From: Escherichia coli | GTDB lineage: Bacteria > Pseudomonadota > Gammaproteobacteria > Enterobacterales > Enterobacteriaceae | Length of the DNA: 64,000 bases | Assembly (NCBI RefSeq): GCF_050920415.1 | Contig: NZ_CP169309.1 | Strand: one strand, 5' to 3' | Shown: piece by piece, positions 58,996 to 61,715 of the stretch | How the letters are laid out: every line of letters begins with the position of its first letter | Numbering within the stretch: the stretch's first letter is position 1 | The notes under the pieces: model-generated | Databases searched by the model: none | What the model was told of the DNA's origin: nothing | What the model saw: only the letters and a program-made list of their open reading frames with translations | Translations under genes and position numbers: made by a program

Positions 58996-59074
58996 ACCCA
59001 GGGAACCTTTGTTACCGCTATGACCCGGCCCGCGCAGAACGGGCCGGTCATTATCTCATCGTGTGGAGTAAGCA

Positions 59075-59896: not shown

Positions 59897-59948
59897 CGTC
59901 CTGTGATTGTGCCGGATGCGATGTAATCATCTATCCGGCATACAGTAA

Positions 59949-60422
59949 CTAATCTCTCAACACCGCTCCCGGATACCCCAGCTGCCGCCAGGCTTCATAC
60001 ACCACGACCGACACCGCATTGGACAGGTTCATGCTGCGGCTGTCCGGCACCATTGGAATGCGAATTTTTTGTTCAGCGGGCAGGGCATCGAGAATGCTCG
60101 CGGGCAGGCCGCGTGTTTCCGGGCCAAACATCAGATAGTCGCCATCCTGATAACTTACGGCGCTGTGAGCAGGCGTACCTTTCGTGGTGAGGGCAAACAG
60201 ACGCTGCGGGTTTTCAGCCTCAAGAAACGCGGCATAGTTATGATGGCGCGTAACGGCGGTAAATTCGTGGTAGTCCAGCCCCGCACGGCGCAGGCGCTTA
60301 TCGTCCCAGGCAAATCCCATCGGTTCGATGATATGCAGGCGAAAGCCGGTGTTGGCGCAAAGACGGATGATGTTGCCAGTATTTGGCGGAATTTCTGGTT
60401 CGTAAAGTACGATGTTTAGCAT
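59949..60422 (-). CDS. trmL: tRNA (cytidine/uridine-2'-O)-methyltransferase TrmL
   Basis: 157 aa SPOUT methyltransferase. Confidence 0.9.
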
Positions 60423-60480
60423 ACTGCCCCCTTAGTGCGGGGGCAGGATAGCAGAAAATTGAGAAGTGGTGCGGCCTTTT

Positions 60481-60518
60481 CCCCTCACCCCGGCCCTCTC
60501 CCCGGAGGGGCGAGGGGG
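60481..60518. repeat. GC-rich imperfect palindrome in the lldD-trmL intergenic region
   Basis: CCCCTCACCCCGGCCCTCTCCCCGGAGGGGCGAGGGGG; arms CCCTCTCCCC / GGGGCGAGGG with one mismatch. Confidence 0.4.
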
Positions 60519-60524
60519 AAACGA

Positions 60525-61715
60525 CTATGCGGCATTCCCTTTCGCCATCGGAGCCAGCGCCGCAGGCAACTCTTTACCCAGCCCTTGCACCAGCGAATCT
60601 TGCGTAATTTCGCTAATCGATTTCGCGCCAGTGAGCGTCATCGCCACTTTCATCTCTTTCTCTATCAGATTAAGCAGATTTGCCACGCCCGCCTGGCCCG
60701 CCGTTGCCAGCGCATACAGGAAAGCACGACCCAGCAGTACAGTATCGGCACCGAGTGCAATCATACGCACGACATCAAGCCCGTTACGAATGCCGCTATC
60801 TGCCAGAATGGCGATATCACCTTTCACCGCATCTGCAATAGCAGGCAACGCACGGGCAGAAGAGAGTACACCGTCCAGCTGGCGGCCACCGTGGTTAGAA
60901 ACCACAATGCCATCTGCGCCAAAACGTACCGCATCACGCGCATCTTCTGGGTCGAGGATCCCTTTGATCACCATCGGGCCATCCCAGAAATCGCGGATCC
61001 ACTCAAGGTCTTTCCATGAGATAGAAGGATCGAAGTTATTCCCTAGCCAGCCGATGTAATCTTCCAGTCCGGTCGGTTTGCCGAGATAAGCCGAGATATT
61101 ACCGAGATCATGCGGACGACCATTCAGGCCCACATCCCACGCCCATTGCGGATGCGTTACCGCCTGCAAGTAGCGGCGCATTGCCGCGTTCGGGCCGCTC
61201 ATTCCAGAGTGCGCATCACGGTAACGCGCACCAGGCGTTGGCATATCCACAGTGAAGACCAGAGTTGAACAGCCTGCCGCTTTTGCACGCTCCAGCGCGT
61301 TACGCATAAAGCCGCGATCGCGCAGCACATATAACTGGAACCACATCGGACGCTTGATGGCGGGGGCGACTTCTTCAATTGGGCAAACAGAAACGGTCGA
61401 GAGAGTAAACGGAATGCCATGTGCATCCGCCGCTTTTGCGGCCTGAACTTCGCCGCGTCGCGCATACATGCCACACAAACCTACCGGACCTAGCGCCACC
61501 GGCATCGACAATTTCTCATTAAACAGCGTCGTTTCCAGGCTTAAGTCGGACATGTTTTTCAGAATTCGCTGGCGCAGCGCCACCTCTGACAAATCTTCCA
61601 CGTTGCGGCGCAGGGTGTATTCAGAATATGCCCCCCCATCCATATAGTGGAACAGGAATGGCGGCAGAATGCGTTGTGCTGCGGCGCGATAATCGCTGGC
61701 TGCGGAAATAATCAT
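60525..61715 (-). CDS. lldD: FMN-dependent L-lactate dehydrogenase
   Basis: 396 aa alpha-hydroxy acid oxidase family. Confidence 0.95.

Follow-up and report, generated by a model that had tools for sequence, protein, structure and literature searches.

A trmL-linked hairpin and a BoxC repeat in the lldD-trmL spacer of Escherichia coli: possible insulation of a tRNA methylase gene from read-through transcription

Two structured elements lie in the spacer between lldD and trmL, the genes for lactate dehydrogenase and a tRNA methylase, in the 64,000-nucleotide stretch of Escherichia coli DNA analysed here (from contig NZ_CP169309.1; referred to as the window), and each of them resembles systems described before. 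Fold-back inhibition, reportedly found by Davis, Simons and Kleckner in 1985 in elements of the IS10/IS50 type, is said to protect the transposase gene from outside transcripts. By the logic of that system the native start lies inside an inverted repeat, so that native mRNA lacks the 5' arm, and transcripts coming from outside would fold a hairpin that hides the ribosome-binding site; the element directly before trmL can be read by analogy in the same way. It differs in that trmL is a housekeeping tRNA-modification gene, not a part of a mobile element, and in that the 5' arm doubles as a promoter discriminator; the likeness is functional only, the gene encoding TrmL and no transposase. An extended -10 element with a GC-rich discriminator is the mark of rRNA/tRNA-type, stringently controlled promoters. 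The trmL promoter resembles sigma-70 promoters of this kind in having TGnTATnnT with no -35 hexamer, followed by a GC-rich segment, and trmL is likewise a gene of the translation apparatus. A further parallel is offered by hairpin-protected 3' ends of Rho-terminated transcripts (Adams et al. 2021). The second, distal element belongs to the BoxC repeats of the 1990s, which are the PIT elements of the Maher laboratory and the TMECO of Holder et al. 2015 (NAR 43:10126; PMC4666352); among the G-quadruplex-hairpin motifs HPG1/HPG2 of Kaplan et al. 2016 (NAR 44:9083; PMC5100583), HPGQ no. 43 and no. 44 are located in the lldD-trmL spacer.

With moderate confidence, we regard the spacer as holding two unrelated things, a trmL-linked hairpin embedded in the trmL promoter and a copy of the BoxC repeat. 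The features that concern the hairpin are the following.

Positions 59949-60422, minus strand: trmL (tRNA methylase), laid out as in the original prediction made from this DNA.
Positions 60525-61715, minus strand: lldD (lactate dehydrogenase).
Positions 60423-60524: the lldD-trmL spacer, 102 nt.
Positions 60445-60453, minus strand: extended -10 element TGCTATCCT, with TG at 60453-60452 and the hexamer TATCCT at 60450-60445.
Positions 60439-60444, minus strand: GC-rich discriminator GCCCCC (mostly GCGCCCC in relatives), between the -10 hexamer and the start site, forming the core of the 5' arm.
Position 60438, minus strand: putative trmL transcription start, a G and the first base of the loop, equal to K-12 position 3,781,199 and giving a 5' untranslated region (UTR) of 16 nt.
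Positions 60424-60446, minus strand: proximal hairpin, with 5' arm CUGCCCCC (60446-60439), loop GCACUAA (60438-60432) and 3' arm GGGGGCAG (60431-60424).
Positions 60427-60433, minus strand: trmL Shine-Dalgarno sequence AAGGGGG.
Positions 60420-60422, minus strand: trmL start codon ATG.
Position 60419, minus strand: equivalent of the K-12 RNA 3' end at 3,781,218 (trmL +3), 5 nt past the proximal stem.

The original prediction placed a hairpin at 60424-60446, directly upstream of the trmL ATG, and it was found exactly there. On the plus strand the segment reads CTGCCCCC-TTAGTGC-GGGGGCAG, and the minus-strand RNA from 60446 down to 60420 reads CUGCCCCC-GCACUAA-GGGGGCAG-U-AUG; its perfect 8-bp stem folds at -18.1 kcal/mol (z = -3.84), a value equalled by none of 200 dinucleotide shuffles. 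The start codon behind it is secure: the product aligns with the NCBIfam TrmL equivalog over residues 1-157 of 157 and with PDB 4KDZ over 1-157. That the trmL Shine-Dalgarno sequence is inside the stem, as was also proposed, is essentially right, the five G's being in the 3' arm and the two A's in the loop; its duplex with the anti-Shine-Dalgarno sequence has -11.1 kcal/mol, compared with -13.3 for the consensus. Perfect 8-bp hairpins are not rare in the window (35, as against 8.7 +/- 2.8 in shuffles), and the proximal hairpin is about the sixth most stable of them. The sequence alone is thus not decisive, and what makes the hairpin significant is where it lies and how well it is conserved.

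All eight E. coli spacer alleles examined agree exactly in the hairpin and in the 16 nt upstream of it, and the GTDB E. coli representative and E. albertii have the same hairpin. Comparison was extended to 80 trmL loci from other species and to an alignment of 53 species. In about 50 species of Enterobacterales a hairpin of -9 to -24 kcal/mol stands at trmL with the Shine-Dalgarno G-run in its 3' arm, ending at a median distance of 1.5 nt from the ATG. Its carriers extend from Escherichia to Yersinia, Erwinia, Pantoea, Serratia, Photorhabdus, Hafnia, Edwardsiella and Budvicia; among the loci compared, it is absent at trmL in Pasteurellaceae, Xenorhabdus, Providencia, Moellerella and Rheinheimera. 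Of the 57 loci that have the hairpin, only 13 carry lldD upstream of trmL; cpxA (matching its NCBIfam equivalog at 563 bits, with a cut-off of 486) takes this place in most of the remainder and a PcaK-like MFS transporter (with a score below the curated cut-off) in some. The proximal hairpin goes with trmL, not with lldD. The upstream gene is co-directional in 49 of the 53 loci that could be scored, mostly with a stop codon 35-60 nt short of the trmL ATG, so that read-through RNA entering trmL is to be expected.

As to gene order itself, outside the Escherichia/Enterobacter group trmL lies in most Enterobacterales directly downstream of cpxA on the same strand (loci L037-L058 and similar). The cpxA stop codon is then about 35-60 nt upstream of trmL, within the upstream region of the trmL promoter, and the insertion of lldPRD between cpxA and trmL is lineage-specific.

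The two arms of the hairpin co-evolve. RNAalifold, run on a MAFFT alignment, gave no consensus structure, because the register of the stem shifts by 1-3 nt between lineages; co-variation was assessed instead by folding native arm pairs against cross-species chimeras and by a position-indexed table of pairs. Native pairs average -16.06 kcal/mol and chimeras -13.39 (permutation z = -7.9, with 0 of 10,000 permutations as low), a statistic that ignores shared ancestry. Pair flips are seen at stem position -4, which is C-G in 19 sequences and G-C in 28, at position -3, where C-G, G-C and U-A occur, and at position -1, which is U-A in Tatumella. The longest stem noted, in Pantoea sp. IMH, has 12 bp and reaches past the C and G runs. 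These data bear on one of the other explanations, that the complementarity is a by-product of a C-rich discriminator, serving growth-rate or stringent control, that happens to face a G-rich Shine-Dalgarno sequence, with no function for the hairpin as such. Chimeric arms indeed still pair at -13.4 kcal/mol, mismatches in some lineages are uncompensated, and with a start in the loop the hairpin would never form in trmL's own mRNA. However, pure coincidence of two runs would hardly leave native pairs 2.7 kcal/mol more stable than chimeras, nor maintain pairing through flips such as those at -4 and the U-A pairs in Rahnella and Tatumella, nor extend stems beyond the C/G runs, nor place an RNA 3' end at the foot of the stem. 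The by-product explanation thus seems to us improbable.

The 5' arm of the hairpin is at the same time a part of the promoter, as the last two bases of the -10 hexamer are the first two bases of the arm. Across the 53 aligned species T-12, A-11 and T-7 never vary, and T-15/G-14 are conserved in at least 90% of sequences, as expected of an extended -10 element. The distance from its end to the trmL ATG is 22-25 nt in most species and 28-29 nt in Erwinia and Serratia. Conservation among the E. coli alleles stops at about -17, and further upstream their sequences differ. A two-hexamer promoter scan of the spacer found nothing and no -35 was seen; such a scan depends on a -35 hexamer, which the conserved extended -10 element does not have. 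The loop G at 60438 lies seven bases after the -10 hexamer, which is canonical +1 spacing, and the primer used by Adams et al. 2021 (PMC7815308) for cloning the 'entire 5' UTR + ORF' (open reading frame) of trmL begins with GCACTAAGGGGGCAG, at that same G. From promoter geometry and this primer, trmL transcription probably starts at the first base of the loop, and trmL's own mRNA should then lack the 5' arm. It could be imagined, on the other hand, that transcription starts further upstream and that the hairpin sits in trmL's own 5' UTR as a constitutive throttle or a device for temperature-dependent translation, which would suit an enzyme in low demand such as TrmL. Conservation of the -10 type (T-12, A-11, T-7 and TG) ending at -17, the published 5' UTR beginning at the loop G at the canonical distance, and the lack of anything conserved upstream that could act as a promoter make this arrangement very unlikely. 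As to the discriminator, no paper on ppGpp/DksA control of the trmL promoter was found.

Several other roles were considered for the hairpin and abandoned. A function on the plus strand was rejected, the stem having no T-tract after it on that strand and no better fold. In many Enterobacteriaceae the 7-nt loop ends in UUAA or UCAA, which prompted the idea of a tRNA-Leu anticodon-loop mimic through which TrmL might regulate itself. This was ruled out on the grounds that UAAGG is an extended Shine-Dalgarno sequence, that E. coli has C, not U, before UAA, and that the loops of Erwinia, Serratia and Pantoea lack the motif. A search of the spacer against Rfam at E <= 10 returned chance-level matches only and no family, and no paper discussing the proximal hairpin was found.

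What position of the start means for translation was estimated by folding. An RNA beginning at 60438, without the 5' arm, has only -7.2 kcal/mol (z = +0.47), is essentially unstructured around the Shine-Dalgarno sequence and leaves that sequence free; when the 5' arm is included, the fold reaches -20.4 kcal/mol (z = -3.15) and the Shine-Dalgarno sequence is locked. The original prediction that the structure could limit trmL translation in read-through transcripts is therefore plausible in just this form: in the folds the Shine-Dalgarno sequence is occluded only if the 5' arm is present. Its words 'in read-through transcripts' are the key qualifier, because, with the conserved -10 directly beside the stem, that arm should be missing from trmL's own mRNA. 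Sequestration of the ribosome-binding site is seen here in silico, and the start inside the loop is derived from the conserved -10 and the cloning primer; occlusion specific to read-through RNA is thus a plausible model.

RNA 3' ends in this region are known from Term-seq of K-12 grown in LB to an optical density of 0.4 (Adams et al. 2021, eLife 10:e62438, PMC7815308, supplementary files 1 and 3). K-12 and the window are identical from -16 to beyond the trmL ATG and differ upstream of -17, as a comparison of the two spacers, already suggested in the original prediction, established. An end with 1,468 reads at K-12 3,781,218, that is at trmL +3, has a Rho score of 3.68 and an intrinsic-terminator score of 1.92 and is located in a Rho region; coverage upstream and downstream of it is 425/96 without bicyclomycin (BCM) and 942/784 with it (PMC7815308). 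The 'primary' lldD end, at 3,781,065, has scores of 1.49 for Rho and 1.32 for intrinsic termination (PMC7815308) and lies 4 nt past the hairpin of the type-A BoxC copy (TMECO no. 17), which is missing from the window. The cut-off for an intrinsic terminator in that study is 3, and both ends stay below it (PMC7815308). A further Rho termination region was mapped inside trmL, at K-12 3,781,497, and a lacZ fusion transcribed from trmL's own transcription start site (TSS) showed no Rho dependence, for which the authors could not account (PMC7815308).

The position of an end at the foot of the stem indicates that the hairpin forms in vivo, and in several respects it is a typical hairpin-protected end of a Rho-terminated transcript: it stands 5 nt past a stable GC stem, has no U-tract, and falls with its high Rho score in a BCM-sensitive region. 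The trmL stem differs from such ends in that it also contains the Shine-Dalgarno sequence of the downstream gene and the last two bases of the -10 hexamer, a difference that links 3'-end formation to translational occlusion. The original prediction took both structures of the spacer for lldPRD transcription terminators, in which case the overlap with the Shine-Dalgarno sequence would be a side effect. It was right that RNA ends coincide with structures, as the primary lldD end and the end past the proximal hairpin show, and the GC-rich stem-loop of an intrinsic terminator is present; coverage also drops about 4-fold across the hairpin in cells not treated with BCM. But the stem is followed by UAUGCUAAAC, with no U-tract, and a scan of the spacer found no terminator-like site; neither intrinsic score (1.32 and 1.92) reaches 3, and a Rho region includes both ends. 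Moreover, the hairpin stays beside trmL in loci that have cpxA or an MFS transporter upstream, BoxC is a dispersed repeat that is missing from one of the spacer alleles (47 nt) and had no terminator activity in reporters (work cited in PMC4666352), and the very copy that carries the K-12 lldD end is not in the window. We consider it quite unlikely that the structures are terminators. The proposed comparison with Term-seq data thus located ends by hairpins of both types, yet the BoxC copy concerned is missing here and the ends are Rho-associated.

Stable hairpins commonly mark the trimmed ends of Rho-terminated RNAs, and this fact favours another role, in which the hairpin only protects or stabilizes the 3' end of the upstream gene's mRNA and has no effect on translation of trmL. 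A co-directional upstream gene is close by in 49 of 53 loci, and the mapped end at the hairpin foot is as such a role would have it. For protection, however, any position in the spacer would serve, yet without exception in the roughly 50 species the Shine-Dalgarno G-run forms the 3' arm and the stem directly adjoins the -10. Unless the hairpin is linked to trmL expression, such fixed placement is difficult to understand, and stabilization as the sole function appears unlikely.

Our preferred explanation is that trmL is expressed from a compact conserved module, in which the extended -10 overlaps the stem by two bases, the C-rich discriminator serves as the 5' arm, transcription would begin at the first base of the loop, and the G-rich Shine-Dalgarno sequence forms the 3' arm. 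The mRNA made from trmL's own promoter would have no 5' arm and an open ribosome-binding site. Read-through RNA from the upstream gene on the same strand, which is lldD here and cpxA in most relatives, would hold both arms and fold the hairpin at -18 kcal/mol, hiding the Shine-Dalgarno sequence. The trmL segment of such RNA, being untranslated, may be exposed to Rho termination, after which exonucleases would trim it back to the hairpin, leaving the 3' end at trmL +3 and a stabilized upstream mRNA. Taken as a whole, this module together with the BoxC origin of the distal palindrome is to us a reasonably probable account of the spacer. More tentatively, and with somewhat less than even confidence, we propose that the hairpin is a conserved insulation device of a housekeeping gene across Enterobacterales, by which read-through RNA would be silenced, terminated by Rho within trmL and trimmed, and to which the discriminator may add growth-rate or ppGpp control. 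The Rho-insensitive reporter is explained by the model, because RNA from trmL's own start has an open Shine-Dalgarno sequence; the contrast between that reporter and the Rho-sensitive region in vivo is consistent, by analogy with fold-back inhibition, with reduced translation of read-through RNA.

Several observations weigh against this explanation. Chimeric arms retain -13.4 kcal/mol, which means that most of the stability comes from a C-run facing a G-run; uncompensated mismatches occur in several Enterobacteriaceae, and the hairpins of Yersinia are weak, at -9.4 kcal/mol. As the chimera test takes no account of shared ancestry, independent compensatory events are far fewer than 53. The start site is taken from a cloning primer and promoter geometry, and all in vivo data come from K-12, whose spacer is different upstream of -17. 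The end at trmL +3 could moreover be a 20-nt product of trmL's own promoter in place of trimmed read-through RNA.

If insulation operates at trmL, levels of TrmL would be uncoupled from induction by lactate or envelope stress, and strong Rho scores at trmL would be reconciled with the lack of a Rho effect in the own-start reporter, a discrepancy in the published data set for which the module offers an explanation. It would also be a chromosomal example of one short sequence playing four roles, those of discriminator, start site, ribosome-binding site and upstream 3'-end structure, and synthetic operons could adopt its design as a compact insulator. Efficient translation of RpoS requires TrmL, and according to a 2024 review it is unknown whether TrmL itself is regulated by stress factors; the hairpin provides a testable hypothesis of such control. 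We see the hairpin as a new instance of a known logic, that of fold-back inhibition and of hairpin-protected Rho-dependent 3' ends, while the BoxC copy was already known.

A separate problem is the nature of the distal palindrome, for which the following features, and those of the variable part of the spacer around it, are relevant.

Positions 60481-60516, minus strand: BoxC / PIT / TMECO type B(mm) repeat CCCTCGCCCCTCCGGGGAGAGGGCCGGGGTGAGGGG, a three-block element.
Positions 60482-60502, minus strand: HPG2 G-quadruplex core GGGAGAGGGCCGGGGTGAGGG, an exact match to HPG2.
Positions 60517-60507 and 60491-60481, minus strand: arms of the minimum-free-energy RNA stem of BoxC.
Positions 60454-60480, minus strand: variable linker from the core promoter to BoxC, including the AAAAGG tail beside the repeat.
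Positions 60525-60527, minus strand: lldD stop codon (TAG here, TAA in the 47-nt allele), the upstream edge of the polymorphic segment.

A second imperfect palindrome further upstream had been predicted, and it is present as CCCTCTCCCCGGAGGGGCGAGGG at 60494-60516, within the three-block element at 60481-60516. This element consists of a C-rich block, a short loop, a G-rich block, a CCG loop and a second G-rich block (about 34-37 nt in all), and matches at 36 of 36 positions TMECO no. 18 (type B, one mismatched triplet), listed at K-12 3,781,121-3,781,156 in Table 1 of Holder et al. 2015 (PMC4666352); the palindrome corresponds to HPG2 no. 44. The expectation that folding energies would be better than those of shuffled controls, which the proximal hairpin satisfied, failed for the distal one: its RNA folds at -27.7 kcal/mol, with z = -1.65 over 45 nt and 0.02 over 65 nt against composition-matched shuffles. 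The sequence is non-random nevertheless, because it is an exact copy of a dispersed repeat. K-12 has 23 copies, with an inverted type-A and type-B pair at five sites, lldD-trmL (nos. 17 and 18) among them, and strains differ much more at TMECO loci than at control loci (PMC4666352). The copy described here is the only one in the window. Like other members it is intergenic, with the lldD stop on one side and the trmL start on the other, and its locus, orthologous to that of K-12, varies between strains. It differs from the K-12 pair in that the type-A copy and about 95 nt between the two have been lost. The distal half of the K-12 spacer, which carries the sister copy, has a median of 12 matches per E. 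coli genome, with a maximum of 23.

The repeat is best seen as a selfish or neutral structured repeat, whose RNA hairpin can, to judge by its predicted fold, stop 3' exonucleases; it is not a dedicated lldPRD terminator. One could suppose, as has been proposed for HPG motifs, that BoxC acts as a switch between G-quadruplex (G4), hairpin and triplex and so regulates trmL. All these structures are formed in vitro by consensus oligonucleotides (PMC5100583, PMC4666352), the G-rich strand is the sense strand here, and variants of the motif were recorded in radiation-evolved E. coli (PMC11344242). Yet E. coli strains with identical trmL promoters may lack the element or have it in partial or doubled form; the distance of such elements to genes ranges from 10 to 310 nt with no functional bias, and PIT elements had neither promoter nor terminator activity in the reporters of the Maher laboratory (cited in PMC4666352). 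In silico, furthermore, the RNA hairpin at -27.7 kcal/mol far outcompetes the G4 at -12.6 kcal/mol. A switch that controls trmL is, in our estimation, very improbable indeed. In the radiation study, four 'variants' (A, C, T and A, each to G) were reported in this BoxC copy, in all isolates and at about 8% in all four subpopulations (PMC11344242). All four turn loop bases between G-tracts into G, and to us selection seems a less likely source of them than gene conversion or a systematic artefact of sequencing or mapping in a G-rich repeat.

Spacer alleles of 47, 72, 102, 154, 185 and 197 nt occur among E. coli strains, with BoxC absent, partial, single or paired. The 47-nt allele of Nissle and uropathogenic E. 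coli (UPEC)-type strains has no BoxC, that of 72 nt keeps one arm, that of 102 nt is the one in the window and that of 197 nt belongs to K-12. E. albertii and the GTDB E. coli representative have the 47-nt form, and by this distribution the repeat-free spacer is probably ancestral. BoxC would then have been inserted beside trmL in some E. coli lineages and rearranged later, the window keeping only the type-B copy of the inverted pair seen in K-12. The polymorphic block has sharp boundaries, at the lldD stop codon (TAA or TAG) and at position -17 of the trmL promoter. The linker differs from that of K-12 (TTGAGAAGTGG here, TTGGTGAGCAG there) and is absent from the 47-nt allele. The exact allele of the window was found in about 16 of 5,426 complete E. 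coli genomes (about 0.3%). This hypervariable locus has already been used for strain typing (PMC7168681), so the BoxC half of our analysis adds nothing beyond a rare allele of it.

Two details of these alleles may be recorded. The lldD stop codon is TAG in alleles that bear BoxC and TAA in the 47-nt allele (locus L003, positions 471-473), with an identical LldD accession, WP_000586976.1; since the stop differs and the protein does not, the replaced block starts exactly at the stop codon. About 800 of the 5,426 genomes have a 35-bp palindrome, CTGTCTCTTGATCAG-GAGAT-CTGATCAAGAGACAG, in place of the centre of the BoxC pair (for example in the 154-nt allele of E. coli 33F4, locus L004, positions 495-560). 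We take its arms to match the inside end of IS50; its core also matches regions annotated as IS4-family transposase elsewhere, plasmids included. It looks like a minimal end-to-end footprint of an insertion sequence, or a miniature inverted-repeat transposable element, inside the BoxC palindrome.

The end of the window to which the spacer belongs is the E. coli region with gpsA-cysE on the plus strand and trmL-lldD-lldR-lldP on the minus strand, and a few observations concern its other gaps. No REP- or BIME-like match was found in the spacer, and the only weak match of REP type lies in the gap between the convergent cysE and trmL, where the palindrome GCCGGATGCGATGTAATCATCTATCCGGC (59905-59940) hits Rfam naRNA4 at E = 0.085, far under the gathering score. 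A Rho termination region antisense to trmL, at K-12 3,781,526 (about 60110 in the window), has a score of 3.36 (Adams et al., PMC7815308) and presumably reflects read-through from convergent cysE. In the gpsA-cysE spacer, at 59022-59050 on the plus strand, there is a GC hairpin, GACCCGGCCCG-CGCAGAA-CGGGCCGGTC, of -18.3 kcal/mol. On the same strand Adams et al. (PMC7815308) recorded an abundant 'orphan' 3' end at K-12 3,782,582, with about 47,000 reads, and the sequence string that they give for it includes this hairpin, which is likely to be a terminator or attenuator between gpsA and cysE.

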